This document shows positions 6,333 to 62,374 of a stretch of 64,000 bases of DNA, piece after piece. Numbering within the stretch: the first letter of the stretch is position 1; each line of letters starts with the position of its first letter. The notes beneath the pieces are model-generated. The model did not search any database and was not told the DNA's origin. It saw only the letters and a list, made by a program, of their open reading frames with translations. The stretch comes from an uncultured delta proteobacterium (GTDB lineage: Bacteria > Desulfobacterota > Binatia > UBA9968): contig CAVUZH010000013.1 of NCBI GenBank assembly GCA_963745835.1, positions 128,001-192,000 of the forward strand. The letters are read 5' to 3'. The translations under genes and the position numbers were made by a program.

Positions 6333-6488
6333 CTAGCAGAGTGCTGAAAAAAGCCTCTTGCAGGCTGCTCAAAAAGATCCAGAGGCGAGGCGGCGCGAAA
6401 ATCGACGAGCGAAGGCGTACTTACAGTACGTCGCAGCGAGGCGATCGAGCGGCAACGAAGCATATGGTTTTTTTCAGCAGCCTGCTAG
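6333..6488. mobile_element. ~155-bp MITE, copy 1 (IS5/IS1182-like TIRs, CTAG at both ends)
   Basis: CTAGCAGAGTGCTGAAAAAA ... TTTTTTCAGCAGCCTGCTAG. Internal sequence recurs at 51525-51682 and 61961-62115. Confidence 0.85.
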
Positions 6489-6682
6489 GGCACAATTTCG
6501 TCGGAACTCTGGCAATTCTTGCTTCTTTCCAGCTCCGCGCATTCGGCGCAGAGCCGTTCCGATGGCGGATTCACAGCGCTGCTGATCTCGTCGAAATCCT
6601 TGGCCGGCCAGTCTTTACAGTTCATACAGAAATGCCAGAATGCGCTGCCTCGTTCTTTGCGGTAAGTGGCTTGCGTCGGCAT
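6485..6682 (-). CDS. Small Cys-rich putative zinc-binding protein
   Basis: WHFCMNCxxWP ... LCAEC (two CxxC). GGAGG upstream. Stop codon coincides with the MITE end. Confidence 0.6.
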   Translation of the reverse strand: MPTQATYRKERGSAFWHFCMNCKDWPAKDFDEISSAVNPPSERLCAECAELERSKNCQSSDEIVP

Positions 6683-7511: not shown

Positions 7512-7571
7512 GGATAACGCCGCGGTTCAGCCGCGCGAGGTACGAGCGTCGGCTGGAACCGCCAGTTATGC
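7512..7571 (-). mobile_element. Integron attC site (60 bp) of the GFA cassette
   Basis: Minus strand GCATAAC TGGCGGTTCCAGCCGAC...GCGGCTGAACCGCGGC GTTATCC: R''/L''/L'/R' imperfect palindrome just downstream of the stop. Confidence 0.88.
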
Positions 7572-7589
7572 AGCATGCGGACGCCCCCC

Positions 7590-8018
7590 TTATTCTGGAG
7601 CCGCTGAATACTCCGCGAATACCTCGGCTCCGGTCAGGTTCTTCGTTTGGTTTGCGAACGAATAGAACGACGGCTTTTCATCGATAAAAATCTGTTGATC
7701 AAAGACCCATTGTTCTCCGTCATCGAGTAGACCAACAGGAACCGCGTAGTGCCCTTCTTTCTTTAGGCGGTAGAAAAGATGGCTTCCACACTTACTACAG
7801 AAGCCACGCTCGGCCCAGTCGGAAGAACTGAAGACAGATATGCTGTCATTGCGATCAAAATGAACGTCGCTACCGCACTCAATGAAGAGCAAAGGCCCAC
7901 CTGTCCATTTCCTGCACATACTGCAATGGCAGGCACCCACACTCTTGCTGGTCGTCTTTATTGAAATACGGACTGCCCCGCAAAGACAGCTTCCATCTCG
8001 TTTGGTTTCGCCTGCCAT
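7590..8018 (-). CDS. GFA (glutathione-dependent formaldehyde-activating/CENP-V) family protein, gene cassette
   Basis: GSCLCGAV, CHCSMCRKWTG, RGFCSKCGSHL. GAGGAGG RBS. Bounded by GTTATGC (8042-8036) and the complementary GCATAAC attC. Confidence 0.93.
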   Translation of the reverse strand: MAGETKRDGSCLCGAVRISIKTTSKSVGACHCSMCRKWTGGPLLFIECGSDVHFDRNDSISVFSSSDWAERGFCSKCGSHLFYRLKKEGHYAVPVGLLDDGEQWVFDQQIFIDEKPSFYSFANQTKNLTGAEVFAEYSAAPE

Positions 8019-8035
8019 ATCGTCCTCCTCAAATT

Positions 8036-8223
8036 GCATAACTATTAAGTAAGCCGCCGTAGGAGGCGACAAAGGCCGATCGGCCTATCTCGGAACACAG
8101 CTCGGATTTCGAATTACAAACGGCTCGCAATCTCGTCCACTTGAACCAACTCATCAAGAAACATTTTGACCGCCAAACACCGCGCGGCATGGCGGCCTAT
8201 CTACTGGCTCGCAGCCTATTTCG
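8036..8223 (-). mobile_element. attI-like platform, copy 1
   Basis: Non-coding. 41/53 ungapped identity by hand count to 31803-31855, with patchy similarity for ~190 bp. Ends at the GTT where the cassette starts. Three GCCTAT(C/T)T repeats. Confidence 0.7.
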
Positions 8224-8260
8224 TGCGCTAGATTAGAGTCAAGCTCTGTAATCAACGTGA

Positions 8261-8299
8261 GATTGAATTTGATCGATTGATCCGTCAGTTCGATTCAGC
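8261..8299. repeat. TGA-N8-TCA family element, deleted form (right end of unit 1)
   Basis: GATTGAATTTGATCGA...TCAGTTCGATTCAGC. Terminal part is the inverted match of GCGGGATCAAACTGA at 7474-7488 (12/15). Confidence 0.6.
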
Positions 8300-8344
8300 T
8301 CGCCTTTAATGTAAAAGAAGATGACGGGATAGGTTGCAGAGGTG

Positions 8345-19539: not shown

Positions 19540-22500
19540 CTACAACGCCGCGGTTATCGGCAGCGAAAAAGTAAAACTCGATCCCTTGCCAACCTCGCTC
19601 GTCAGCCAGATTTTGCCGCCGTGCAGCTCGACAAACTTCTTCGCCAAAGTTAATCCGAGTCCGGTCCCTTCGCTCTTGTGCTCGTAATCGGAGCCTACCT
19701 GGCGAAACTCCTCGAAGATCCTGGGCTGGTCCTCAGGCGCGATCCCGATGCCTGTGTCAGTTACCGAGATCTCCACAGCACCGTTACTTTGTATCGCGTT
19801 AATTTCGATCCGGCCTCCCTCCGGGGTGAACTTCACCGCGTTAGACAGCAGATTAAGAAGGATCTGCTTGATCTTTCGCTCGTCGCCGATGAAATCCCCG
19901 AGGCGCTCGTCAATCGCGACATCAACCGTGATGCCATGCCGTGTGGCGCGCTCGCGGACAAAGGTGCGCGCATTGTCTATGGCTAAAGGAAGATCGAATG
20001 TAGCCAGCTCCAGTTCCATGCGGCCGGCCTCGACCTTGGCGAGATCGAGTATCTCATTGATGAGAGATAAAAGATGGCGGCCGGAGGAAAGGATGTCTTC
20101 GGTGTACTCGGCCTGTTTTTCGTTTAATTCACCGAACAGTCTTTCGCCCAATACTTCGGAGAAGCCGATGATGGCATTGAGCGGCGTGCGTAGCTCGTGC
20201 GACATGTTGGCGAGGAATTCGGATTTGTGCCGGTTCGCCGCTTCGATCTGCCGGCTCTTGTCTTCGATCTCGCGGAATAGCCGGGCGTTTTGAATCGCCA
20301 ACACCGACTGCGTCGCAAAGGTTTTCAGAAGCTCGATGACTTCGGGGCGAAACTCGCCGGTCGATTTGCGCCGTACCACCAACCCGCCGATGATGCGGTC
20401 TTCACGCAGCAAGGGAACGGCCAGGCTGGCACGGAAACCGAATCGCTCGAGCAACTGCCGCATGCGCGGCGCGTAAGCGCGCTCTTCTAAGATATTGGGA
20501 ACTTGCACGGGTTCACGGCTCGCCGCGGCCCGTCCGACCACTCCGTCTCCTAACCGTGGTGGATGGGCGCGCAGCGCAGTGATGAGTTCCTCTTCCATAT
20601 GATCGGTGGCGCGCAGGAGAAACTCTTCCGAGGGCTCGTCGTATTCGTAAATCGCCCCGCCGTCGGTGCCGCTTAACTGAACCGCATGGGAAACGATTCT
20701 CGTCAGCACGGTTTCGAGATCTAGAGTCGAGCTTACCGCTTGACCGACTTCGCCGAGCGCTTTCAATTCGCCTACCGAGCGAGTCAATTCGTTGGTGCGT
20801 TCATCTAATTCTTTGAACAGTCGGACATTCTCGATGGCGATGACGGCTTGAGCAGCAAAAGTTTCGAGCAATTTGATTTGTTTGTCTGAGAAGGGTCGAA
20901 CCTCCATTCGCCTAATATTGATTGCGCCAATGGGAGTTCCCTCTCTGAGCATCGGCGCGCTAAGAAATGTCCGGACTCCCCGGCGTACGCCCTCGCTGTC
21001 AGGGAATTCCGTTTTAACTTCCTGGAGATCATGAATATGTAAGGTCTCCCGAGTAGAAATCGCTCGGCCCGTAGGGTTTCCCGGTATGGTGAGCCTAAAC
21101 TCCGGGGCTGGGAGAGTTCCAAACGATGCTGCTAATCGTGTTCCGTCACCCTCAATCAGACGAATCTGTGCATCAGTTGCTTCGCAGAGTCGGGCGGCAT
21201 TTACTGCCACGGTATCTAACACCGGCTGAATATCGGTCGGCGAACTGGCGATGACACTGAGGATCTCGCTCGTGGCAGTTTGCTGTTCCAGAGATTCCTT
21301 TAATTCGGTGAACAGCCGGACGTTCTCGATGGCGATGACCGCTTGATCGGCGAAAGTTTTGAGAAGAGCGATTTGCTTATCGGAGAACGGGCGGACTTCG
21401 GTTCGGCGAATCAAAATAGCTCCGATTGCAACCTCTTCGCGAAGCAATGGTGCAGCCAGGAGAGTACGAATACCGAGTGGTTTAGAGAAAGCATAGCCTT
21501 CGGGAAACTCGGCCTGAGCCTCAGGCGTCAACACGTCAGCTAGGTGTATAACCTCGCGGTCAATCATAGCTCTGCCTGGAGGTAGACCCCGGATGAGAGG
21601 TCTAGCTGAACCGCTTTGAGCAATAGGCATCGTTCCATGAGAGGCCACATGCCGATAGCCGCTGCCGTCAATACGGTAAATAATGGCATCGGTTGCATCA
21701 CAAACTCGCGCGGCATTTTCTGCAACCACATCAAGACAGGCTGAATATCCGTCGGCGAGCTGGCGATCACGCCCAAGATCTCGCTGTCGCAGTTTGCTGT
21801 TCCAGGATTCTTAGTTCGTGAACAGCCGGACGTTTTCGATGGCGATCACCGCTTGGTCGGCGAAGGTTTTAAGAAGAGCGATTTGCTTATCTGTGAACGG
21901 ACGAACTTCGGTTCGCCGGATCAAAATAACTCCGATTGCAACCTCTTCGCGAAGCAGTGGTGCAGCCAGGAGAGTATGAATACCGAGTGGTTTAGAGAAA
22001 GCATAGCCTTCGGGAAATTCGATCTGAGCCTCAGGCGCCAACACATCAGCTACGTGTATAACTTCGCGGTCAATCATAGCTCTGCCTGGAGGTAGACCCC
22101 GGATGAGAGGTCTAGCTGAACCGCTTTGGGCAATAGGCATCGGTTCCATAAGAGGCCACAGGCCGATAGTCACTATCGTCCATACGGTAAATAATGGCAT
22201 CGGTTGCATCACAAACTCGCGCGGCATTTTGTGCAACCACATCGAGCACGGGTTGAATATCGGTCGGTGAGCTGGCGATCACGCCGAGGATCTCGCTGGT
22301 CGCCGTCTGCTGTTCTAACGATTCTTTGAGTTCTTGAAACAACCGCACGTTCTCGATGGCGATGACCGCTTGGTCGGCGAAGGTTTCGAGAAGCTTGATC
22401 TGTGCCGGAGTGAAGGGGCGCACCTCAGTGCGGCGTGCGAACAATCCTCCAACGACTTTTCCATGCTGACGGAGGGGAGCGCCTAAGAACGTGCGCCATC

Positions 22501-25500
22501 CGCTGAGAGAAGGGACAGGTGGAAGATCGTTTTGAGCACGGACATCGGGCACGTGGAGCACGCCATGCTCGCCCATCCAGCGAATCCATGGTTCGTCATC
22601 ATGAATCTCGATGTGTACGACGGGTATGGACCCAATATGAGCTCGCGGAATCATGGTGTTTCCGTCCCTGCAGGCGCAGCAGCACGTCATCGATCCCACA
22701 AACCCGCGCCGCGCTTTCGACAATGGCGTCGAGGACCGGCTGCACGTCTGTCGGCGAGCGGCTGATGATGCCGAGCACCTCGGCGGTTGCGGTCTGATGC
22801 TCCAGGGCTTCGTGCAACTCTGCGTTGCGCTCCTGGAGTTCTTTGAACAGCCGCACGTTCTCAATAGCGATCACTGCCTGGTCGGCAAAAGTCTTGAGAA
22901 GCGCGATCTGTTTGTCTGTAAAGGCACCAGGGTACGATCGGTTTACCCCGATGGCTCCGATGGGCCGTCCTTCGCGGAGCAGCGGCGCGGCTAAGAGAGC
23001 TTTGACCTCTCCGGCATTCTCCGCGTGCAGTCGGAAATCAGGATCTTGTCGTACGTCGGGTATGTGGATCACCGTGGAATCCAGAACTGCACGTTCCATT
23101 GCGGATTCTCTGGTTGGATGGTGCGGGAATCTTCGCCGCATGGCATCGTGCGCTTCCGCCGAGACATTATGCTGGGCAGCTAAGTGGACCATCTCGCCAT
23201 CGAAGCGGACCACGCTGCATCCTGACCCCTCGCACAATCGAGCAGCGTTCTTGACGATAGTGTCGAATACTGGCTGAACATCCGTTGGCGAACTGCTGAT
23301 AACAGAAAGAATCTCACTCGTGGCGGTCTGTTGCTCCAACGATTCGGTGAGATCGCGGTTCCGAATTTCGAGTTCCTTGAACAAGCGGACGTTCTCGATA
23401 GCGATGACCGCTTGGTCGGCAAAGGTTTTGAGGAGCGCAATCTGCTTCTCGAGTAAAGGACGGACTTCGGTGCGGCGGATCATGATCGCTCCGATGGCGA
23501 TACCTTCGCGCAGTAACGGAGTAGCTAAGCATCGTGCGAATCGCCATACTGTGCGACGATACTCCAAGCTCGGAAATTCCTTCTACACGCTCAGCATCAT
23601 GTCTGCATGATGGACAATTTGCCGGTCCACAACCGCACGGCCGACTAACGGACATCCGATCTTAACGGTCGCGTCCCGCCGATGGCAAGATCGGCCACGG
23701 AATATGAACCATAGCTGCAGCTTCAAGACGGATCATTCGCCTTCGACACGGTCAGATTGTCGCATCGTTTGCGTCACACAGACGCGCGCCGCATTCTCGG
23801 CGACCGTATCCAGCACAGGCTGAATATCGGTCGGCGAGCTAGCTATGACGCCCAGGATCTCGCTGGTCGCTGTCTGCTGCTCCAATGCTTCTTTCAGTTC
23901 TCGGAATAATCGCGCGTTCTCGATCGCTATCACGGCCTGGTCGGCGAAGGTTTCGAGGAGCTTGATCTGCGCCGGGGTGAAGGGGCGGACCTCGGTGCGA
24001 CGTGCGAACAGTCCTCCAATCAGTTCGCTTTGCTGACGAAGGGGAACGACCAGGAAGGTCCGCCAGCCGCCGGTAACCGCCATCCGTGAATCGGTCTGGT
24101 CACTGGCGTCGGGAATGTGCAGCGTGCCATGCTCGCGCATCCAGCCAAACTGTGGCTCATCGATACTGATTTCGACGCGGTTGATAACTAAGGGACCAAA
24201 ATGAGCCCGACAAACCATGGCGTTGCCGTCTTGGAGTCGCAACACCACATCATCGATCCCGCAAACCCGCGCGGCGCTCTCGACGATCGCGTCGAGCACC
24301 GGCTGCACGTCCGTGGGCGAGCGGCTGATGATGCTGAGCACCTCGGCGGTGGCCGTCTGATGCTCCAGGGCTTCGCGCAATTCGGAGTTGCGCTCTTCTA
24401 GTTCCTTGAACAGGCGCACGTTCTCGATGGCGATGACCGCCTGGTCGGCGAAGGTTTTGAGGAGAGCGATCTGTTTTTCCGAAAAAGGACGTACTTCGGT
24501 TCGGCGAATATGAATTGCCCCGATCGCAAGTCCTTCGCGCAGTAATGGAGTAGTTAAGATAGTTCGGATCTTGCCGGTGTGAAAACTATCTGAAAATTCC
24601 GCTCTAAACTCCGGCACCAAAACGTCGTGGATGTGCACGGTTTCTTTGTCGATCATCGCTCGGCCGCTCGGAATCGAGCGAATCAGTGGCCGACGCTTCT
24701 CGGAATCGGCCACTGGAGTTGAACCATGCGCCGCGACAAGCCAAAATTCATCGCCGTCAGTACGCCAGATCGCCGCATCGCCCGCATCGCAGAGTCGCGC
24801 GGCGGTCTTGGCGACGATGTCGAGGACAGGCTGAAGGTCCGTCGGCGAGCTGGCGATGACGCCAAGAATCTCATTGGTGGCGGTCTGTTGTTCCAATGAC
24901 TCCTTGAGCTCGTTGAATAATCGTACGTTCTCAAGCGCGATAACAGCCTGATCGGCGAAGGTTTCAACAAGTTTGATTTGATTGTCGGTGAATGGCCGCA
25001 CTTCGTTGTAATGAGAAGTGACGATCACCCCGAGCAGCGTGTCTTCTTTGAGCAACGGCACGGCTAAAGTGCTGAGCCGGTTCTCCCTGCGATACGCATC
25101 GGTCTGGTAAGCATCGAAGCCAGCCGCGGCGACAACATCAGGCACGTGAATGGTTCGTCGCTCCAGAGCCGCGCGTCGGCTTGCAGTCTCTGTTCCGGGC
25201 CGGACCGAGTAGTTTTCCATACGCGCCATATTCTCAGGATCGAGATTGTGTCCCACGGCGAATCGCAGAAATTCGCCATCGAACCGGAATAACGCGGCGT
25301 TCTGTGTGCCGCACAGACGTGTAGCGTTGGCGAGGATCGTCTCGAAGACCGGCTGCAAGTCGGCCGGCGAACTGCTGATCGCGCCCAGAATCTCACTGGT
25401 CGCAGTTTGTTGCTCCAGCGCTTCGCTCAGATCGCGGTTGCGATCCTGCAATTCTTTGAACAGACGAACGTTTTCGATGGCGATGACCGCCTGGTCGGCG

Positions 25501-27848
25501 AAAGTTTTGAGAAGCGCGATTTGCTTGTCTGAGAATGGACGAACCTCAAGACGACGGAAATGAATAACTCCCGAGCGCGACGCCTTCGCGTATCAACGGG
25601 ACGGCAAGAAACGTTCGCGCGACAATCTGACGGCGAGTTTCAAGCATCTCTGGATATTCCGACTCAATCAGCTGATCCACATCCTCATGATGGATAATTG
25701 CCTGATCCATCACGGCTCGCCCTGGCGGTGATTGCCGGTTGATAGGGCGTTCTACCGCTACGTGGGGTATTGATCCGTAATGAGCTGCCAAGCGCAGCAC
25801 GTTTCCATCCACCAACCGCAACACGCCGTCTTTCGCGCCGCACACTCGCGTGGCACGCTCGGTGATGGTTTCTAAGGAGTAACGGCTTGCTGCATGGGTT
25901 CCGCGTGTTGAAATTCGTTTTCAATATCCGCGGCGAGCTCATGGATATGGATCGTTTGCCGATCGAGAATTGCTCGACCGGCGGGCCGTCCACGAGCGAT
26001 CGACATTCCACCCCGGCGAACTGATGGGCATGTAACCATAGACAGCCGCTACTCGAAGAAGGTTACCGTCAGACGATGGATGACGGCCTCTCTGGAATCA
26101 CACAGCTTCGCGGCGTTTTCAGCGACCACGTCCAAGCACCGGCTGGATGTCCGTCGGCGAGCTAGCGATGACGCCCAGGATCTCGACTGGTCGCTGTCTG
26201 CTGCTCCAATGCCTCTGTGAGTTCTTTGAACAGCCGCACGTTCTCGATCGCGATCACGGCCTGATCGGCAAAGGTCTCGAAAAGCTTGATCTGCGCCGGG
26301 GTGAAGGGACGAACTTCGGTGCGACGGGCGATCAGCAATCCAATGAATTCGCTTTGTAGTCGAAGCGGTGCGGCTAAGAAGCAGCGAAAGCCGCTGGCGA
26401 CACCAAACACTGAAAAGTCATCCTGCGCGGCGCGGGTGTCTGGAATGTGGAGCGTGCCATGCTCGCGTATCCAGCGAAAATGTGGGGTGCGGTCAATATT
26501 TAGCTCAACACGGCCACTGGCTATGGATACCGGACCAACATGAGCCCGCGCAACTACAACGTCACCCTCACGCAGTCGCAGCACCACGTCATCGATACCG
26601 CAAACCTTCGCGGCGCTCTCGACGATGGCGTCGAGCACCGGCTGCACGTCCGTCGGCGAGCGGCTGATGATGCCGAGCACCTCGGCGGTTGCGGTCTGAT
26701 GCTCCAGGGCCTCGCGCAATTCCCTGTTGCGCTCGCCGAGTTCCTTGAATAAGCGCACGTTCTCGATGGCGATAACTGCTTGATCGGCGAAGGTTTTAAG
26801 AAGAGCGATCTGTTTGTCCGTGAAGGGGCGAACTTCCGTGCGACGGATTACGACATTTCCAATCGCATCGCCCTCTCGCAGCAATGGCGTAGCCAGGATC
26901 GTGCGCACGCCGGTACGTTCGTAAAGTGTTCTGGCTCCCGGAAATTCAGTATCAAACCCTGCACTAATATCGTGGATGTGAATCGTCTGCCGATCGATAA
27001 TGGCTCGCCCGCCCACATGGCCTCGGTTGAAAACACTCGCTTCGTCGGGCGTAGCCATTGAGCCATAAGAAGCCACTCGACGAAGAAGATCACCCTCAAC
27101 CCGATTGATCTGGGCATCCGTTGCACCGCACAGCCGAGCGGCATTCTCCGCCACCACATCAACACTGGCTGGATATCCGTCGGCGAGCTGGCGATAACCT
27201 GGAGAATTTCGCTCGTGGCAGTCTGCTGCTCGAGATTCCGCATTCCGAGTTGGAGATTCACTCGATTTTTTTGCTGCGAGTTCTTCAAACAGCCGAGCAT
27301 TCTCAATCGCGATCACCGCCTGGTCCGCGAAGGTTTCCAGTAACTTGATCTGCCGCTCTGTAAAAGGTCGAGCCTCGATGCGGCGGAGCAGTATCGCTCC
27401 AATCGGAACACCCCGTCTAAGCAATGGCGTTGAGAGTACAGTCCTATTGCCGTGGCGCTGCGCAAGTTCCCGTGCCCGTGGATACTCCGATACTGGTGTA
27501 TTCAAGATGTCGTGAACGTGAATCGTTTGTCTGTCCAGCATCGATCGGCCCGCGACACTGCCCCGGTCGAGCGGCACACGTTCCTGGCGGGGAGTGACAG
27601 AAATCGGACCATAAGAAGCCACGGCCCGATGTCCCTCATCATCAAGACTCAAAATTTGCGCATCGATAGAATTGCACAACCGCGCTGCGCGCTCGGCAAT
27701 CGCGTCAAGCAAATGCTGAAGATCGCCTGTCGCCGTGGCGATCATCCGCAGGATGTCATTGGTGGCGTTCTCCCGCTGTAACGATTCCGCGAGTTCTCGC
27801 CGCACCTCGGCAATCGTTTGCGCTTTCTTAGATACTCGGCGCTTTCAC
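19540..27848 (-). pseudogene. Giant multi-GAF (~14-15 GAF) histidine kinase, split by many frameshifts
   Basis: [11 protein letters not shown]-type motif counted 14 times across ORFs 26162-27805, 25546-25845, 23733-25451, 22599-23567, 22112-22864, 21811-22242, 19540-21729. C-terminal MSHELRTPL and HATPase boxes intact. Confidence 0.85.
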
Positions 27849-29303: not shown

Positions 29304-30338
29304 CTACTTCGACTCCAGAATCTGTTTAACTCGCTTGACGATCGAGGGCTCGATTTCATACAAGCCCTGCACCATCTTCTCTATGCCGGGTCCATCGATT
29401 GAGTCGATCTCGAGCTTCGCCTTTTCTGCCTCAGCCTTAAGCTGAGGATCCTTGAGAGTATCGATAAAGGCTTTCTGCAGTATTCGCACGCGCTCTTCGG
29501 GGACTTGTGGCGGAAGCGAATAGAGCCTTTGTTTGCCGTAAAGCTCGCTAGCGATCTGAAGGAGCTTTTTGCTTTCGTCGGTTTTGGCGTAATCGACAGC
29601 GAGAGGGACACCCTTCAGCTCGGGATGAGATTCAAGCATCGTCTGCAGCACAACGTGAACCTCTCTTGCCTTCAGCGCGTTGGCCCAAGTCACCTTCGCC
29701 GATTGCCATCCAAAGGCGCAGGTCCCATCGACTTCACCTGTTTCCGCGGCAATTCTGATATCGGCGGTACCCTTGTACCCCTCGATCAGCTGCAGGGGAA
29801 AACCTGTGGCGGCGGCGAGGAGCTTGGTATCATCGGTTCCGCTTGTGCCGGGGCCGATGGCCCCCAGCTTGACCGGTGTTTTAGCCTTGCGCCAATCCTC
29901 CGCCGTTTTTATTCCGCTGCGTTCGGTCGTGATGCATATGAGGGAATCCGCCGTCGGCATGCCGAGCCAGCCAAACTTGCGCCCGTCAAATTGCACCGCG
30001 GGGTTACCCATCAAGTGCTGCAGAATGAGAGGACCGGACCAATGCCCGATGACTGTTCCATCGCGAGGAGCGCTGTTGAAGACGAAATTGGCCGCAATCA
30101 GCATGGCTGCTCCAGGCATGTTTTGAACGACTGTGGAGGGTTTGCCGGGAACGTATTGAGAGAAGTAGCGCGCTATTAGCCGGGTGTAAGTATCATAACC
30201 TCCACCGGCGGATCCACCGACGATGAACTGAATTGCTTTGCCCTTGTAGAACTCCTCGACCGAGGCAGCAATCGCCGACGTGACCAGCGATCCCGAGATA
30301 AAGATAGCAAGCAAAAGTCCACAGAGTGCTTTGGTCAT
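29304..30338 (-). CDS. Tripartite tricarboxylate transporter substrate-binding protein (Bug/TctC)
   Basis: FYKGKAIQFIVGGSAGGGYDTYTR, QNMPGA, GYKG. Confidence 0.92.
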   Translation of the reverse strand: MTKALCGLLLAIFISGSLVTSAIAASVEEFYKGKAIQFIVGGSAGGGYDTYTRLIARYFSQYVPGKPSTVVQNMPGAAMLIAANFVFNSAPRDGTVIGHWSGPLILQHLMGNPAVQFDGRKFGWLGMPTADSLICITTERSGIKTAEDWRKAKTPVKLGAIGPGTSGTDDTKLLAAATGFPLQLIEGYKGTADIRIAAETGEVDGTCAFGWQSAKVTWANALKAREVHVVLQTMLESHPELKGVPLAVDYAKTDESKKLLQIASELYGKQRLYSLPPQVPEERVRILQKAFIDTLKDPQLKAEAEKAKLEIDSIDGPGIEKMVQGLYEIEPSIVKRVKQILESK

Positions 30339-30456
30339 GACCTACCTCCGGGTGATTTGTCTATTCTGGCCGGAGGCTAAGTTGCCCGCGGGGCTCATGT
30401 CAAGCGGTTTGAGAGAAGCTAATCAAAGAGACGCCATATGACACCGAAGCAATTAG

Positions 30457-30515
30457 ATTTGAATTGATCGACGCTTCAACTAAATTCAAGAGGTCTGATG
30501 ATAGGATCAGATGGT
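30457..30515. repeat. TGA-N8-TCA family palindrome (A-type) plus degenerate second site; left end of the TIR unit
   Basis: ATTTGAATTGA TCGACGCT TCAACTAAATT, then GGTCTGA TGATAGGA TCAGATGG. Confidence 0.75.
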
Positions 30516-30685
30516 CGGTTCTAACTTTGAATGCCCCCACCACTTTTGTTAACGTCCGCAAATTTCCGCGGCGAATGCGCTGCCTTAAAAACGTTAATGG
30601 AACTGTAGCTAAATAGTACTGCCTATTGGCAGCCTGCAGATGCAGCGAAATATGAAAACTTTCGACAAGACTACGGTCGGGGGAT

Positions 30686-30934
30686 TTACAGATTGGGATC
30701 AAAATCGATGACGATCTCAGAAGATGCTTCGGGGTAAAGTTTCTTCGCCCATGCGAGCAGATCTTCTGCGCTTCTACGCTCGCATTGAATGTTTACCACC
30801 GTATAGTCGCCTTCCGCATTGCTTACGTCTGTAATTACCCCGGCTTTCAAAAGTTGATACTCGTTGCTGACGCTTTTGCAACGGCTCAGAAGGCCATTGT
30901 AAAGCTCTATTGGGATTGTGACCAGAACGCTCAT
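30686..30934 (-). CDS. Small hypothetical protein
   Basis: 82-aa ORF, globular composition. Confidence 0.5.
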   Translation of the reverse strand: MSVLVTIPIELYNGLLSRCKSVSNEYQLLKAGVITDVSNAEGDYTVVNIQCERRSAEDLLAWAKKLYPEASSEIVIDFDPNL

Positions 30935-31025
30935 ATTTCACGACTTCCAGTTAGTCGACTGACCAAGCCGCGCCAGCTGTTACAGGTGCTAAAAAGTTAC
31001 TTCTCAAGCCGGTTGTTGGACGGCA

Positions 31026-31778
31026 TCAAACTTTAGCCTTCAACTTTGCTGCCCATTGTCGTCCGAGATCCGTTAGCGCAACTATATCTGCAATGTCATA
31101 CACCCCATCTGATTTGAGCTCTCCAATATTCCGGCCACTGTGCTTTCGAATCAGTCCTATCGAACGGAGATGTCGCAGTTCTGAACGGACAATACCACCG
31201 CCTTTGTAGCCCCTCGTCTTGCCATCTGCGATATTTAGGAGGTGCTTCTGCTCTGGTTCTGGGATCAAGACTGATAGCACTAAACCTATGTCTTGCGGGT
31301 TCGGCACCGCCGCGTCATGTAACACTGCGTGCTTACGAATTGTAGTACGAATATCGTGACACGCTGGGCCCAACGCGGCTTGAAGTCGATCGGGTCGAGA
31401 AGGCGGCTGGAACCTCGCGGTCGTAATGCCAAGCAAGTCAGTGGGCAGGTGGAAGTCCGCCGAATCTTTCGGCATCAATATGAAACTACGGTCTCGACCA
31501 AGACGTCCGATGAAAAGACCAAGTTCAAAAACAACATTGTCCCTGGCCGTCACCATTTCCATGCCACGTATTTTGATCAGGTCATCGGGACCGAAAATGA
31601 ACAAGCCGAATTCTGTGTCTTCGAGCGCCTCCAGTAACGATTCAAGATAGGACTTGGTCAGCTCAAAGATACCTTGCGTCCATACAATGACTTCCGCCAC
31701 GTCCTCAAGGTTTTTCTGAGCTGCGTATGCCACGTCGAGACTCTCAGACGAAGATCCAACAAAAAGGGCTGGTTTCAT
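31026..31778 (-). CDS. TIR-like nucleotide-binding protein (CAP12/Pycsar-effector TIR family), gene cassette
   Basis: LFVGSSSES, WTQGIF, FGPDD, ARDNVVFELGLFIGRLG, PTDLLGI. Flanked by GTTAGACGGC (31806-31797) and GCCGTCCAAC (31024-31015). Confidence 0.9.
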   Translation of the reverse strand: MKPALFVGSSSESLDVAYAAQKNLEDVAEVIVWTQGIFELTKSYLESLLEALEDTEFGLFIFGPDDLIKIRGMEMVTARDNVVFELGLFIGRLGRDRSFILMPKDSADFHLPTDLLGITTARFQPPSRPDRLQAALGPACHDIRTTIRKHAVLHDAAVPNPQDIGLVLSVLIPEPEQKHLLNIADGKTRGYKGGGIVRSELRHLRSIGLIRKHSGRNIGELKSDGVYDIADIVALTDLGRQWAAKLKAKV

Positions 31779-31796
31779 CGACAGTACCTTTCTGCT

Positions 31797-31990
31797 GCCG
31801 TCTAACTATTAGGTGAGCCGACGTAGGCAGCGAGAATTAGCGGTCAGCCTATCTCCGCGACGGCTCGGACAAAAATGGTCCAAATCATTCGCAATATCCA
31901 TCAGGTAACCGAGCTTTGTCAACGTAAGTCTCCGCGAAAAGCCGACCGGCACGGCGACATATCTACTTAACAATCGGCGGCTTATTTCGG
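31797..31990 (-). mobile_element. attI-like platform, copy 2
   Basis: Homologous to 8036-8223, ends at GTTAGAC just upstream of the TIR gene RBS. Confidence 0.7.
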
Positions 31991-32013
31991 CCAGACCATC
32001 GCGAAAGCCCGGG

Positions 32014-32086
32014 CAGGATTGAACTGAACGACGCTTCAATTTGATTTCACGCAGATTGGTTTGATGGAGAATTCAGTTCAATGCTG
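32014..32086. repeat. Complete double-palindrome element (A+B)
   Basis: GATTGAACTGA ACGACGCT TCAATTTGATT - 7 nt - GATTGGTTTGA TGGAGAAT TCAGTTCAATG. Outer CAGGATTGAACTGA/TCAGTTCAATGCTG inverted. Confidence 0.88.
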
Positions 32087-32821
32087 GCATCGCAGAACAC
32101 CGCCGCACCCGCTGATTAAGAGTTCTGCCGGCGTAATCAAGTGGCCCAAGAAGATCCAAGCAGGCCCAATGATTAGAGCGCTCCGATTGCTTGATCATTG
32201 AGTTTGTTTGGGTCTCTTGGGGGAGCAGTTCTCGGGCAAAACACGGACACTGTAAACTCTAAATGGTTCATCAATTTCGCGCGAAACCGACCGTCTTCCG
32301 CAGAGCTCTTGAATGCCTTCAAAAGCCGATCGTCACTAGAACCTAAACACGCCGTCAAAAGACAATAGAACCAAGCCCCGAGAGCTTTCTTTATTGGAAG
32401 GTCTTGGGGCTTGTTGTTTCTGCTGTACGGACAAAAGGCGGACAAGAACCGCTTTTATTAGGATTTGAAGGTTTCATGAAGCACCTCTGCAGTACAGTAA
32501 GCAGGGTACAGCTCTAGAGGAGACAACTAGCTATTATGATGATTAGCCTTCGCATCATCCTTCCGCTGATAGTGAGCTACCGAGAAAATTTCGTATTAAC
32601 TTCAGCTTCGCGTCGGTGCCAATGCGACAAAATCGGTGTAGCAGGAATAAGTCTGCGAAAAAGGATCGCCGTCTGATCCGAAAATAATAAAAGTCACGAG
32701 CGAACCCCCCCATATAGAGACTCTTGCTTCCGATAAAGATATTCCGAGTAGTTTTATTGACGTCTCCTCCTGCATTTCCCAGGAGCCCCTGGTCCATCTT
32801 GGACTTTGATTAATAAGTATA

Positions 32822-35938: not shown

Positions 35939-36254
35939 GCCGCCGTATAGCCCCGTTTCCTATATTCCAACATTAGCGGCCATCCCTCCAACACGACGGA
36001 AACCCGTGTGTCAGAGTGCCAACTCGACTACTGACGGAAGAAGGGATCAGGAGAAAGCGTAAGGTTGAAAACGGTCAAGCTTCGAGTACGGTGGTGGTTG
36101 AGCACACGATGAATCGAGTTTGTGTATCCAAACAGCAGCCGGGGAAGAGAACGATTGATTGGCCATCAAGTGGTCCGCTCTAAGGTGATTCGGGGCGAGC
36201 GATTTTGCACAGCTGTCCGGGAAATGCGCGAGCCGTGATTGCAAATTTCCATTC

Positions 36255-36287
36255 CAGGATTGAACTGAACGACGCTTCAGTGCGATC
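36255..36287. repeat. TGA-N8-TCA family palindrome (A-type); left end of the methyltransferase unit
   Basis: CAG GATTGAACTGA ACGACGCT TCAGTGCGATC; first 25 nt identical to 32014-32038. Confidence 0.85.
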
Positions 36288-36308
36288 TCAATTCCAAACA
36301 GCTTCGTT

Positions 36309-37244: not shown

Positions 37245-37432
37245 GGGATTCCTCCTCTCAGAAGCTGTTTGAAATCCGGGCGTAAGATTAATTCGTTGGA
37301 GAAGGCTGAGAAGCGCGAAGCGGCTTTGTCTAGCCGTTGGTTAAGCATTGTCAACTAGTCTGGTCGGCAGTATATCCCACATCGGCGGTGGCGTATATTC
37401 AATATACCGTCACGAAACGCCCTTCTCCTCCG

Positions 37433-37507
37433 CAGGATTGAATTGATTCGACGCTTCAATGTGATGTGACGCGAAATCGCGCTGAAGGAGAATTCAGTTC
37501 GATCTCG
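37433..37507. repeat. Complete double-palindrome element (A+B)
   Basis: GATTGAATTGA TTCGACGCT TCAATGTGATG - 8 nt - AATCGCGCTGA AGGAGAAT TCAGTTCGATC. Confidence 0.85.
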
Positions 37508-41171: not shown

Positions 41172-41479
41172 GCGACTGCAAAGCTAATTCGCGTTGTATT
41201 CGCCTCAGCGTGTCCTTTCGGTCATTCTGTCTGACCTTGACAGAACACTGCCAGCAGTGATCAAGCGCCCGTCCTAGCTACATGCTGAAACCTCATCCAC
41301 GCCTGATTTCGATAACGGAAATCGCCAATGAAAAAGCCCAGGCAAGCAGCTCGGCAGTTGAAAGCCGGCGCCCAAGGCACGTCGTCCGTGATGCGGGCAC
41401 GGACAAACCCCGCCAGGAGGAGGCAGCCTCGCTACAAGGGCTCGGCTATTCAGTCGAGGGTTAGTTCGATGGCCGGGAA

Positions 41480-41513
41480 GATTGGGTTGAAGGAGAAATC
41501 AATTCAATCCTGG
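41480..41513. repeat. TGA-N8-TCA family palindrome (B-type), degenerate A site just upstream
   Basis: GATTGGGTTGA AGGAGAAA TCAATTCAATC CTGG. Confidence 0.82.
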
Positions 41514-42891: not shown

Positions 42892-42967
42892 AGGCAGTTC
42901 CTTTCGAGCATCATTAATCGCGCAGAACGAAAAGATTTGTCAAATACGCTGTGCTAGTGCACCCTAA

Positions 42968-43032
42968 GATTGAATTGATCGACGCATCAGTTCAAACATC
43001 GAGAGATTGCGGTGCTGGAACCCAGTCAAATT
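42968..43032. repeat. Double-palindrome element (A intact, B degenerate)
   Basis: GATTGAATTGA TCGACGCA TCAGTTCAAAC - 7 nt - GATTGCGGTGC TGGAACC CAGTCAAATT. Confidence 0.8.
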
Positions 43033-51524: not shown

Positions 51525-51682
51525 TTAGAAGTTTGTGAAGAACTCTCTTTGCAGGCTGCTCAAAAAGATCTCAGAGGCAAGACGCGCGAAGAATCGAAGA
51601 GCGTAGACGTACATAGCGAGTACGTTGCAGTGAGGCGATCGAGCGCAACGAAGCCTATGAGGCTTTTTCAGCAGTCTGCTAG
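51525..51682. mobile_element. ~155-bp MITE, copy 2
   Basis: TGCAGGCTGCTCAAAAAGATC...GAGGCGATCGAGCGCAACGAAGC...TTTTTCAGCAGTCTGCTAG. Confidence 0.82.
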
Positions 51683-53440
51683 ATGAAACCGATGAGTATG
51701 CCGGTCACTGCTCAACCAGCAATCGATCCAATCACCCTCGAAGTTATTCGCCACGGCATCATTTCCATTTGCGATCAGATCGACGCGAACATGACGCGCA
51801 CGGCATTTAGCCCCTATATCTACGAATACAAGGACTACGCCGTGGGATTTGTCGGCGCCGGCGGCGAACTATTGGCGCAATCCACCGGCGGCATGCCCGT
51901 ATTTGTCGCCGACTCAGTCGGTATGGCGGTAAAAGATGGTTTGGCGATCTATGGGCGCGACAATTTACAAAATGGCGACGTCATCGTCTGCAATCATGCG
52001 GCGGTGCAGGGGCAGCATCTTAACAATACGGTTATGTACACGCCGGTTTTCGCTGGCGCGCACAGCAAGGAGTTGATTGGTTTCTTCGCGGTTAACTGCC
52101 ACTGGATCGATATCGGCGGTTCGGCCATCGGTTCGGTATCGTACTCGTCCACCGACATCTTTATGGAAGGCTTACAGCTGCGCTCGATCAAGATCTGGTC
52201 CAAGGGCGAGCCCATGGAAGAGGTTTATCGCATCATTGAAAACAACACCCGCTTTCCCTTGGAGTTGCTGGGTGACATCGAAGCGCAACTGGGTGGCTGT
52301 CTATTGGGCCGCGATCTTACCCAGACGATGGCGGACAAAGTAGGCGCCGGCGTATTTCTGCACGCGCTCGATATCATTCTCGACCAGTGCGAAGCCGCCA
52401 CCAGGGCAAAGATTCGGGCCATCCCGGACGGCGTCTACCGACATGAAGCGTTCTTGGACAACGACGGCGTGCGCGATGAGAAGATTCCGATCAAAGTAAA
52501 AATCATCGTCGCCGGCGATGAGCTTACCATCGATTATTCCGAGATGTCGCCGCAGGTGCGGGGTTGTATCAATTCAGGATACTACGGCGGCGGCCGCACC
52601 ACGGCGCGGGTGGCGTTCAAGTATTTAATCGCCACCGACGAGCCCGCCAACGAGGGCACCTTCCGGCCGCTCAAGATGATTTTGCCCGAAGGAAAATTGA
52701 TCAGCGCCGAGCCGACCGCGGCGATGGGACTGTACAGCATTCCGTTTCCAACGATCATCGATTGCATTATCAAAGCGTTGGAACCGGCCTTGCCCGAGCG
52801 GGTGACCGGCGCTCACTTCGGCACTTTTTCGTCATTGAGTTTTTCCGGCAAACGCACTGACACCGGCGCTGTGTTCAAGGCGAACGACAGCGGACATGGC
52901 GGTTGGGGCGCGTGCGCGACACATGATGGCGCGGGACCCTTTCGCACCATGGCGCATGGCGACACGCGGTTGATTCCCATCGAGCTGCAAGAGTCGATGT
53001 ATCCGTACCGGGTCGAGGAGTTTTGTTTGCGGCAGGATTCAGGCGGGCCCGGCAAATGGCGCGGCGGCCTTGGATTCGACAAGCAGTATATTCTCCTTGC
53101 GCCCTGCGAACTGTGGGCAAACTTCGACCGCATCGGCTGCCCGCCATGGGGCGTGCAAGGCGCCAAAGCCGCGAAGTCCGGTCAGGTGTTGATCTTCAAA
53201 AACGGCAACCAGGAACCCGAGCGGCTTTACAAGACCGAGAATTGCCCGTTAGAAGCAGGCGATCGCGTGCGCATGTCCACCGGTGGGGGCGGCGGCTACG
53301 GCGACCCCGGCGAACGCCCCATCGAACGGGTCAAACAAGATGTTATCCGCGGCTTCGTTTCTCTCCAAAGCGCGCGCGACGATTACGGCGTCGCGATCGA
53401 TGCGAACGGGAGAGCGGCACGGATGAAAGCGGAAGGATGA
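51683..53440 (+). CDS. Hydantoinase B/oxoprolinase family protein
   Basis: IDPITLEVI, RTAFSP, HWIDIGG, MEGLQL, DSGGPGKWRGG, TGGGGGYGDP. Confidence 0.95.
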   Translation: MKPMSMPVTAQPAIDPITLEVIRHGIISICDQIDANMTRTAFSPYIYEYKDYAVGFVGAGGELLAQSTGGMPVFVADSVGMAVKDGLAIYGRDNLQNGDVIVCNHAAVQGQHLNNTVMYTPVFAGAHSKELIGFFAVNCHWIDIGGSAIGSVSYSSTDIFMEGLQLRSIKIWSKGEPMEEVYRIIENNTRFPLELLGDIEAQLGGCLLGRDLTQTMADKVGAGVFLHALDIILDQCEAATRAKIRAIPDGVYRHEAFLDNDGVRDEKIPIKVKIIVAGDELTIDYSEMSPQVRGCINSGYYGGGRTTARVAFKYLIATDEPANEGTFRPLKMILPEGKLISAEPTAAMGLYSIPFPTIIDCIIKALEPALPERVTGAHFGTFSSLSFSGKRTDTGAVFKANDSGHGGWGACATHDGAGPFRTMAHGDTRLIPIELQESMYPYRVEEFCLRQDSGGPGKWRGGLGFDKQYILLAPCELWANFDRIGCPPWGVQGAKAAKSGQVLIFKNGNQEPERLYKTENCPLEAGDRVRMSTGGGGGYGDPGERPIERVKQDVIRGFVSLQSARDDYGVAIDANGRAARMKAEG

Positions 53441-55750: not shown

Positions 55751-57466
55751 ATGCTGATGAAAGCAAAGGCAGAGCTCACAGCACCGCAGCCACCCGTCGA
55801 TCCCATCACCCTCGAAGTCATCCGTCACGGCATCGTTTCGATCACCGACCAAATCGACGCGAACATCGCCCGCACGGCCTTTAGCCCTTACATATACGAG
55901 TACAAAGATTTCGCCGTTGGGCTGGTAAGTGCGGATGGTGATCTCATCGCCCAATGCACCGGCGGTATGCCGGTCTTCGTTGCCGACTCGGTCGGCATGG
56001 CGGTGCGCGATGGCCTTGCCGTCTATGGCCGTGAACGCTTGCAGCATGGTGATGTGCTCTTGTGCAATCACGCGGCGATTCAAGGACAGCACTTGAACAA
56101 CACCGTTATGTATACGCCTATTTACGCCGGTGCCGGCAGTGGCAGCCTGATTGGCTTTTTCGCCATCAATGTCCATTGGATCGATATCGGCGGCGTCACG
56201 CCGCGCTCCAGCGATATTTTCATGGAAGGTTTGCAGTTGCGCTCGATCAAACTGTGGTCGGAGGGCGAACCGATTCAAGAGGTGTATCGGATCATCGAAA
56301 ACAACACGCGCTTTCCAGTGGAGCTTCTAGGCGACATCGCGGCGCAGCATGCAGGTTGTATTCTCGGTCGCGATCTAACGCAAAGCTTGGCCGAGAAGTA
56401 CGGCGTCGAGACTTTCTTAACAGTGGTAAAAGCCATGCTCGATCAGAGCGAAGCCGCGGCGCGTGAGCGCATCCGCCGCATACCGGACGGCCAATACAGC
56501 TATGAAACATTTTTCGATAATGACGGCGAAACCGATGATGCGCTGCCGATTCGAGTCAAAGTAATTATTGAAGGCGACGAGATCACCGTCGACTATTCGG
56601 GGATTGCCGAGCAGGTGCGCGGCTGCATCAATTCGGGATATTACGGCGGCGGGCGCACCACGGCGCGGGTTGCGTTCAAGTATCTAATCGCCAACGATGA
56701 GCCCGCCAACGAAGGCACTTTTCGGCCGCTCAAACTGATTCTTCCCGAGGGCAAAATCTTGAGCGCCCATCCAACGGCGCCGATGGGAAATTATTCGCAG
56801 CCGTTTCCAACGGTGATCGATGCGATTATCAAAGCTTTGGAGCATGCCCTGCCCGAGCGGGTCACCGGCGCGCATTTCGGAACTTTCTCGGGCGTACGTT
56901 TTCGTGGCAAGCGCGACAACGGCGCTCCGTTCGATTGTCATGACAGCGGTCACGGCGGCTGGGGCGCCTGCGCGACTCACGACGGCGCCGGCCCGTTTCG
57001 CACGATGGCGCACGGCGACACGCGCATCATTCCCGTGGAACTTCAGGAGTCAATGTATCCTTATCGCATCGTCGAGTTCTCACTACGTGAAAATTCGGGC
57101 GGGCCCGGCAGATTTCGCGGCGGCCTTGGCTATCGCAAACGATACGAAATCCTCGGCCACTGCGACCTCCAGGCGATGTTCGATCGGGTCAAGTATCCGC
57201 CATGGGGAGTGCATGGCGGCAAAGCAGGCCAATCAGGGCAGATCACCGTGATCAAAAAATCCGGCGATCAGGAAATCCTCTACAAGAGTAAAGCTTATCC
57301 GTTGGAACCTGGCGATTCGATCATCGTTGAGACCGGCGGCGGCGGCGGCTACGGCTCGCCCCATGAACGCAAGCGCGAATTGCTTGAACGCGATCTGCGG
57401 CGCGGTTATGTATCCGTAGAAGCCGCTCGGCGCGATTACGGAATTGCCATCGAGCGGACTCGCTAG
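55751..57466 (+). CDS. Hydantoinase B/oxoprolinase family protein (second paralog)
   Basis: Same motifs as 51683-53440, with long identical peptide stretches. Confidence 0.95.
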   Translation: MLMKAKAELTAPQPPVDPITLEVIRHGIVSITDQIDANIARTAFSPYIYEYKDFAVGLVSADGDLIAQCTGGMPVFVADSVGMAVRDGLAVYGRERLQHGDVLLCNHAAIQGQHLNNTVMYTPIYAGAGSGSLIGFFAINVHWIDIGGVTPRSSDIFMEGLQLRSIKLWSEGEPIQEVYRIIENNTRFPVELLGDIAAQHAGCILGRDLTQSLAEKYGVETFLTVVKAMLDQSEAAARERIRRIPDGQYSYETFFDNDGETDDALPIRVKVIIEGDEITVDYSGIAEQVRGCINSGYYGGGRTTARVAFKYLIANDEPANEGTFRPLKLILPEGKILSAHPTAPMGNYSQPFPTVIDAIIKALEHALPERVTGAHFGTFSGVRFRGKRDNGAPFDCHDSGHGGWGACATHDGAGPFRTMAHGDTRIIPVELQESMYPYRIVEFSLRENSGGPGRFRGGLGYRKRYEILGHCDLQAMFDRVKYPPWGVHGGKAGQSGQITVIKKSGDQEILYKSKAYPLEPGDSIIVETGGGGGYGSPHERKRELLERDLRRGYVSVEAARRDYGIAIERTR

Positions 57467-61960: not shown

Positions 61961-62115
61961 CTAACAGTTTGCTGAAAACTCTGGTTGCAGGCTGCTCAAA
62001 AAGATCCTAAGGCGAGGCGCGCGAGAAATCGACGAGCTAAGGCGTACTTAGAGTACGTTGCAGCGAGGCGATTGAGCGCAACGAAGCATATGGGTCCTTT
62101 TCAGCAGCCTGCTAA
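61961..62115. mobile_element. ~155-bp MITE, copy 3
   Basis: CTAACAGTTTGCTGAAAA...TGCAGGCTGCTCAAAAAGATCC...TTTTCAGCAGCCTGCTAA. Confidence 0.85.
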
Positions 62116-62374
62116 ACTAAATTGATGACGGTGTACGTTAACATGGACGACAAACCTGTCAAGGATCGGATATCACCGCCTCAAGGCATCGTCGAACTGA
62201 ATGACATTCAATACGCCTCCCGAACCTCGAGACGAACAACGCGCAATAATGACTGTAATTTTTCCGGTGCAGAAAGTTTTTTTCCTCATCGCCGTCACGT
62301 CAATCGAATATTTTTTATAGACGAAATTTACTTTCGATATTAACATACGGCCAAAAATTTAAACGGAGGAATTC

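Follow-up and report, generated by a model that had tools for sequence, protein, structure and literature searches.

Probable attI/Pc relics of reverse-orientation integrons without an integrase gene in a soil Binatia-type genome

In class 1 integrons intI is oriented divergently, Pc lies inside intI, and the attI1 site of ~65 nt combines the direct repeats DR1 and DR2 with a simple site, L-R, that ends in GTTRRRY. The platforms described here, two of which (A and B) lie in the 64-kb window (the whole stretch of DNA that was analysed), resemble attI1 in showing, by eye, accessory direct repeats upstream of an inverted pair, in being non-palindromic and in their G|TT crossover. Unlike attI1, with its ~65 nt and divergent intI, the platform extends over ~190 nt and shows no sequence similarity to that site.

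A different order, intI-Pc-attI-cassettes, is described for reverse integrons (PMC4909258), and putative attIs immediately downstream of intI are described for archaeal integrons (PMC9668308). As in the passages drawn on here from these two papers, on Treponema denticola-type reverse integrons and on archaeal attIs, the platform of relatives of our genome lies just 3' of intI on the same strand; by eye its inverted boxes are of L/R type, the crossover falls on the GTT of the first cassette, and a promoter-like sequence points into the cassettes. In contrast to the attIs of those passages, the window copies are without intI and unrelated in sequence, the promoter sits between accessory repeats, and four sequence types occur in one genome. 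According to the sections used from Cury et al. 2016 (PMC4889954), attI is unknown for most integrons and hence not searched for, a CALIN by definition comprises two or more attC sites, and intI pseudogenes also occur. Like CALINs and intI pseudogenes, the platforms are integron parts that outlast the loss of the integrase, with an insertion sequence (IS) involved in one copy (on contig C14); unlike a CALIN (at least two attC sites within 4 kb, no intI), the window holds one canonical attC by a crude scan. The delta-attI-type cassettes of PMC12901181, in the part of that paper used here, likewise place attI sequence in arrays away from intI and end in GTTRRRY. They are mostly 14-18-nt stubs replacing attC in resistance integrons, with fragments of up to 244 nt, whereas the copies described here are nearly whole, promoter-bearing platforms in a chromosomal, non-clinical genome. 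A narrow literature search returned no title or abstract with this box-promoter layout, a point on which the archaeal attIs in fig. S2 of PMC9668308 may bear. Reverse integrons are a known kind of gene-capture element, and the platforms are present many times in one soil Binatia-type genome. From sequence comparison, we consider it probable that A and B are attI/Pc relics of reverse-orientation chromosomal integrons whose integrase gene has been lost.

The original prediction started from the resemblance between two segments of the window, and its measurements were reproduced. Segments 8039-8091 (A) and 31803-31855 (B) match at 41/53 bases without gaps, as claimed (binomial P 2e-15; ~1e-5 once every position pair in the window is counted), and in a MAFFT alignment the patchy similarity again spans ~190 nt. 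About three GCCTAT(C/T)T repeats per copy had been reported; on the plus strand, repeats of this type are found at 8083, 8195 and 8214 in A, and at 31847 and 31980 in B, with a degenerate one near 31957. Since both segments lie directly upstream of minus-strand genes, the platform is read on the minus strand. The direct repeats of the earlier inventory stand, but this minus-strand reading and a fourth, inverted repeat had been missed. The platforms fold no better than shuffled sequences (z -0.53 to +0.35) in contrast to the true attC behind platform A (z -2.5), in agreement with the statement that they are not palindromic like attC.

On the sense (minus) strand, two direct repeats of the platform come first; a sigma-70-like promoter is next, followed by the third repeat, an inverted repeat and, last, AATAGTTA (Table 1). 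In type 1, DR1 and DR2 read (G/T)A(A/G)ATA(A/G)GCCGCC, the promoter block reads TTGACA-N17/18-GATATTGC, the inverted repeat copy CGGCGGCTYAC runs into TTAATAGTTA, and the conserved platform end, which is the probable cassette joining point, is ACTYAATRG|TTR. The repeat boxes were annotated by eye. Their sequence varies by locus, yet all boxes within one locus change together (ATAAGCCGCC with GGCGGCTTAC, ATACACTGCC with GGCAGTAT, TATACTGACC with GGTCAGTATA). A repeated-10-mer score over 71 intI 3' flanks was no better than the internal control. A spaced four-box test was positive in 10/80 flanks versus 17/400 shuffles and 7/80 reverse complements; it was too crude, missing copies that are clear by eye. 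Searching the genome with a regular expression that combined promoter and end motif gave 13 matches, three of which are real platforms. The TTGAC block is kept in a 12-copy platform alignment. As to the Pc module of the original prediction, the promoter sequence is well formed in B and not in A: a promoter scan scored TTGACA-18-GATATT of B, directed into the downstream gene, as 10/12 sigma-70-like, and found no site at threshold in A (hexamers TTGATG and GAGATT).

Table 1. Positions of platforms, cassette, genes and hairpin repeats in the 64-kb window.
Feature	Position	Strand	Details	Basis
Platform A (probable attI/Pc relic, type 1)	8036..8223	minus		Alignments, junction analysis
Platform A DR1	8210-8223	minus		
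Platform A DR2	8191-8204	minus		
Platform A DR3	8080-8091	minus		
Platform A inverted repeat	8049-8059	minus		
Platform A decayed -35	8152-8157	minus	TTGATG	
Platform A decayed -10	8129-8134	minus	GAGATT	
Platform A R box/crossover	8042 to 8036	minus	GTTATGC	
Cassette A	7518..8041	minus	~524 nt; starts at the TT behind the platform's G, ends at the G of the R' box in its own attC	R''/junction complementarity
GFA-family gene of cassette A	7590..8018	minus	142 aa; ATG at 8018; GGAGGA RBS	Pfam PF04828, E 8e-19
Canonical attC of cassette A	7512..7571	minus	60 nt; R'' GCATAAC, R' GTTATCC	attC-architecture scan
Divergent hairpin copy	8260..8300	minus	~35 nt 5' of platform A; kept in G006 orthologue	E 0.008
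Platform B (probable attI/Pc relic, type 1)	31800..31989	minus		Alignments, promoter scan, metagenome contigs
Platform B DR1	31975-31989	minus		
Platform B DR2	31953-31966	minus		
Platform B DR3	31842-31855	minus		
Platform B inverted repeat	31813-31823	minus		
Platform B -35	31922 to 31917	minus	TTGACA	
Platform B -10	31898 to 31893	minus	GATATT	
Platform B R box	31806 to 31800	minus	GTTAGAC	
TIR-domain protein gene	31026..31778	minus	250 aa; behind platform B	Pfam PF10137, E 5e-29
82-aa ORF, no known family	30686..30934	minus	Between TIR gene and next hairpin	
Full two-module hairpin	32012..32082	minus	~33 nt 5' of platform B	nhmmer E 2e-19; 17-copy alignment
Half hairpin copy	30459..30492	minus	3' of genes behind platform B	Profile search
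Other hairpin copies	36254-36290, 37430-37504, 41463-41510, 42962-43031	minus		

The similarity between copies had been said to stop at a GTT, and this was confirmed with nine non-orthologous type-1 copies from the genome itself, the genus and other relatives: averaged over their 36 pairs, 56% of positions are identical in the 30 nt that precede the G of GTT (8042 in A, 31806 in B), against 25% beyond GTTN. The type-1 platform matches in G001, G005 and G006 all end at the junction, and both in its own genome and in the genus the copies give way to unrelated sequence at GTT. The crossover heptamer of B is GTTAGAC; that of A, GTTATGC, has RYRY instead of RRRY. The traits on which an attI-like segment had been proposed, namely a non-palindromic sequence, repeats and an end that coincides with the GTT of a cassette, are thus all present.

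Behind platform A, the canonical attC is the sole strong match of the crude attC-architecture scan in the window, and its DNA fold reaches -18.8 kcal/mol. Its R'' exactly complements the first 7 nt past the platform (7/7); this complementarity is a hallmark, from which we conclude that the GFA cassette was inserted at the end of platform A. The TIR protein encoded behind platform B matches a PADLOC TIR effector (E 2e-45), NCBIfam Cap12 staying under its cut-off, and its first 150 aa match the TIR domains of CBASS Cap12 and Pycsar effectors; no cyclase gene was found among the scanned neighbours of this stand-alone TIR gene. No canonical attC lies within 1.8 kb of platform B, and no R'' there matches GTTAGAC. 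A search for GTCTAAC, as expected in the attC of a cassette B, gave three occurrences in the window, none correctly placed.

Three further kinds of repeat were observed in the window. Positions 20785-27709 hold ~13 tandem units of ~510 bp, 60-90% identical, inside large minus-strand ORFs (19540-27805) that make up one long repetitive gene or a series of genes. Two paralogous stretches of ~1.5 kb (51713-53158 and 55787-57214), 72-78% identical and ~4.06 kb apart, sit in the plus-strand ORFs 51683-53440 and 55751-57466. A 78-nt repeat at 6424-6501, 51618-51695 and 62051-62128 (64-85% identical) carries a short GC hairpin ahead of a T run; it could represent a small RNA or a repeat that bears a terminator.

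The window's own genome (G000; 7.28 Mb in 25 contigs, 97% complete, 9% contamination) contains at least eight full and two partial platforms of four sequence types. A search with a profile of the two window copies found full copies at C18:528.9k and C3:605.1k, a divergent copy at C19:42.1k and partial copies at C8:117.7k and C13:670.0k; the C8 platform is truncated, and the platforms at C14:588k and C3:391k bear two further box types. A 3' remnant of intI precedes five of the eight full platforms (C18, C14:9.7k, C14:588k, C3:391k and C3:605k), the remaining three, A, B and C19, being without such a stub. Ahead of the C18 platform stand the final, frameshifted codons of a tyrosine recombinase that ends in LGHRDVSTTMIYTHVLKE, and the remnant at C3:605k is recognisable solely by eye. 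On C18, C14, C3 and C19, the platforms have canonical attCs behind them. The match between junction and R'' is exact at C19 (GTTAGCC and GGCTAAC, 7/7), and is 7/7 at C3 if one T is taken as lost from GTTAGAC, which is intact in the G006 orthologue; C18 and C14 have two canonical attCs each behind the platform, with a first R'' that matches at 5/7.

Two of these loci are altered. The type-2 platform at C14:9.7k is split by an IS (C14:8105-9665) with a 413-aa transposase gene (C14:8293-9534) and the target duplication CAGGAATGAATGTTTC; it separates the intI stub from the promoter half of the platform. Outside the window, at C13:669935-670037, a platform is reduced to its 5' half (two repeats and TTGACA..GATATT), which lacks a GTT end and is fused straight to an RBS and gene; here the promoter half appears to be reused by itself.

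No IntI-like match was found within the window, in line with the earlier observation that neither copy has an integrase beside it. The accompanying suggestion, that the platforms are served by an IntI elsewhere, was not supported: every IntI-specific match in the genome is a C-terminal fragment of 37-60 aa, and neither TIGR02249 over its cut-off nor the other IntI searches gave an intact intI in this 97% complete assembly with 9% contamination.

Intact intI genes were found in relatives. A TIGR02249 match over the cut-off was present in 16 of 61 relatives' genomes (a tally that takes in the unpublished G012, whose sequence was set aside), all of the same family and one of the same genus (G002), and the intact IntI proteins score 457-483 bits (cut-off 265). 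Twelve intact intI loci were read, one of which was too short; the other 11 have at least 239 nt of 3' flank. In 11/11 of these, by eye, the platform layout starts 20-40 nt past the intI stop and proceeds from two repeats through a TTGACA-type promoter and the third repeat to an inverted repeat ending in ACTYAATRGTTR. This position directly past the intI stop marks the layout as the probable attI/Pc platform of reverse-orientation integrons. The same layout past intI is visible in contigs of metagenome-assembled genomes (MAGs) titled Nitrospiraceae, Nitrospira, Pirellulales and Bacteroidota. The attI-like reading put forward in the original prediction is thereby upheld, but its account of the context missed that intI and platform share one orientation, intI being on the upstream side, as in a reverse integron.

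The reading of A and B as attI/Pc relics draws together the co-variation of boxes, the intI stubs, the GTT edge, the R'' signature, the turnover of cassettes described below, the promoter of B and the non-coding character of the platform. A reverse integron would be ordered intI, attI/Pc and cassettes on one strand. The repeats are most likely IntI-binding boxes, and the promoter would transcribe the first cassette. In the window intI would have been lost, with A keeping one true cassette (GFA gene and attC) and B preceding the TIR-domain gene, so that today A and B would serve as promoters at most, and could dock cassettes only with a cognate IntI supplied from outside. Evidence against this reading is that the two automated repeat tests did not set intI flanks apart from controls, that B has no canonical attC within 1.8 kb, that the promoter of A is decayed, that the R'' matches at C18 and C14 are 5/7, that the intI stub at C3:605k is recognisable by eye alone, that a hairpin recurs at the 5' edge of A, B and C8, and that the search for intI covered a 97% complete assembly with 9% contamination.

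The element on the 5' side of both platforms had been described as a palindrome ~210-220 bp from the GTT; measured from its end to the G of GTT, the distance is ~218 nt in A (near 8260) and ~207 nt in B (near 32012). It had been taken as attC-like, but it is a genus-specific repeat of ~75 nt made of two hairpin modules, and fails the test for a canonical attC. Module 1 is GATTGAAyTGA-ATTCTCC-wTCAA..CAATC and module 2 is GAAyTGAw-GCGTCG-wTCArTTC, then AATCC; the loops ATTCTCC and GCGTCG are conserved. The profile has 17 matches in the genome, six of them in the window and all of these on the minus strand; further copies lie at C22:259.4k (two) and on C16, C8, C9, C5, C14 and C15. Copies are present in 6/7 other genomes of the genus, and in soil metagenome contigs the hairpin is high-copy with many different flanks. 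At locus B, the variable region ends at the half hairpin copy, past which the sequence is conserved across the genus. Two identities were rejected for the hairpin. As a canonical attC, it was not flagged by the scan, folded no better than shuffles, had lost AAC/GTT in several of the 17 copies and gave an alifold stem almost without covariation. An intI tail relic was an idea that arose by eye from a resemblance to codons for LNRGGRGVQSPAD; the profile misses 13 intI tails even at E 1000, with shuffles behaving alike.

On their 5' side, platforms A, B, C8, G001:C200 and G005:C253 directly adjoin the hairpin, a position that may have arisen when intI was deleted from between the platform and an array farther upstream. 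A more far-reaching picture, which is speculative and rather unlikely, is that attI/Pc platforms are self-standing, reusable modules that outlive intI. Their 5' edge would be joined time and again to the hairpin as a boundary of shuffled gene modules and possible non-canonical recombination site, hairpin-platform-gene units would be spreading within and between genomes (B, C8, G001:C200, G005:C253), and the four box types would be orthogonal IntI-attI specificities that an incoming cognate integrase could re-arm.

It is improbable that the platform is itself part of a mobile unit, in which the hairpin would be a non-canonical attC-like site and hairpin-platform-gene units would be shuffled. 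Delta-attI-type cassettes of class 1 and 2 integrons offer a parallel, with attI fragments of up to 244 nt within arrays on record in the part of PMC12901181 used here. Hairpin and platform occur together at two or more loci of the genome (B and C8, 93% identical) and also in G001 and G005, and hairpins lie 40-70 nt past co-oriented ORFs, in same-strand arrays spaced 0.5-1.3 kb. Some hairpin pairs share the right flank but not the left; a flank comparison of the 17 hairpins gave one ungapped one-sided pair only. Set against such units are the loss of AAC/GTT from the putative R boxes and the shuffle-like fold noted above, local hairpins that by eye covary better than the long-range stem, a spacer at A that is unrelated to that at B, and the finding of no hairpin near the examined intact intI loci.

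G006 has an orthologue of locus A whose hairpin and 5' platform half match those of our genome at 95% identity; its 3' platform half has been replaced, and the same GFA cassette is preceded there by one additional cassette that brings its own attC. In G004, the chromosomal site of locus A carries different cassettes with canonical attCs, and the array stops at the shared GTTAYCCATGTAAT boundary. The outer array boundary is thus common to G004 and G006 and the contents differ, from which we conclude that cassette content has turned over within the genus. The G004 locus (L132; G004:C571, 1700-3060) carries different genes with two or three canonical attCs; it lacks a type-1 platform, and a stretch ending in ATATTACTGGTTAGGGG may be the end of another platform type. 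The junction of B is unchanged in contigs from three metagenome studies. One further metagenome contig starts to match at 31804, consistent with a platform of this kind that carries another cassette.

The variation at locus A would also be expected of working attI sites served by an integrase in trans, encoded in the unassembled 3%, on a plasmid or arriving by transfer. IntI does work in trans in standard assays, with intI1 and attI1 on separate plasmids in the methods passage of PMC9668308; moreover, boxes and R box are intact, as is the promoter in B, and the genus holds an intact intI of the cognate type (G002). We nevertheless think this has a low probability, given the C-terminal fragments that make up all IntI-specific matches of the assembly, the identical B junction across the three metagenome studies, the decayed promoter of A and the several other platforms that are decayed, truncated or split by an IS.

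Direct and inverted repeats around a promoter-like site could also belong to a shared regulatory region without any integron role, either a promoter with ordinary TF operators or a structured 5' leader RNA. This is very unlikely: in relatives the platform is tied to the 3' end of intI, it stops on its 3' side at a cassette boundary to which R'' is complementary, there is no fold signal, and Rfam gave no match for the whole window at the gathering threshold nor for 30300-32300 at E 1. Hardly credible at all is a decayed coding sequence or an IS or transposon end, either of which the original prediction had named as speaking against it: short ORFs overlap both copies and an IS lies inside one C14 platform, but coding sequence is ruled out by the lack of a conserved frame (stops in all six frames in 7/12 aligned copies, and no frame open throughout all copies), the C14 IS interrupts the platform and bears its own target duplication, and the remaining copies have no partner end and no transposase beside them.

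With A and B read as probable attI/Pc relics, comparisons directly reveal how attI/Pc is laid out in a widespread soil clade of reverse integrons, and the co-change of boxes between lineages provides natural data on how an integrase recognizes its own attI. Integron decay is on view in this genome, where intI is cut to its last 40-60 codons or gone and the platform, promoter and first cassette stay. Annotating such relics would account for some isolated attC sites and for some promoters of cassette-borne genes, including the defence-like TIR gene.
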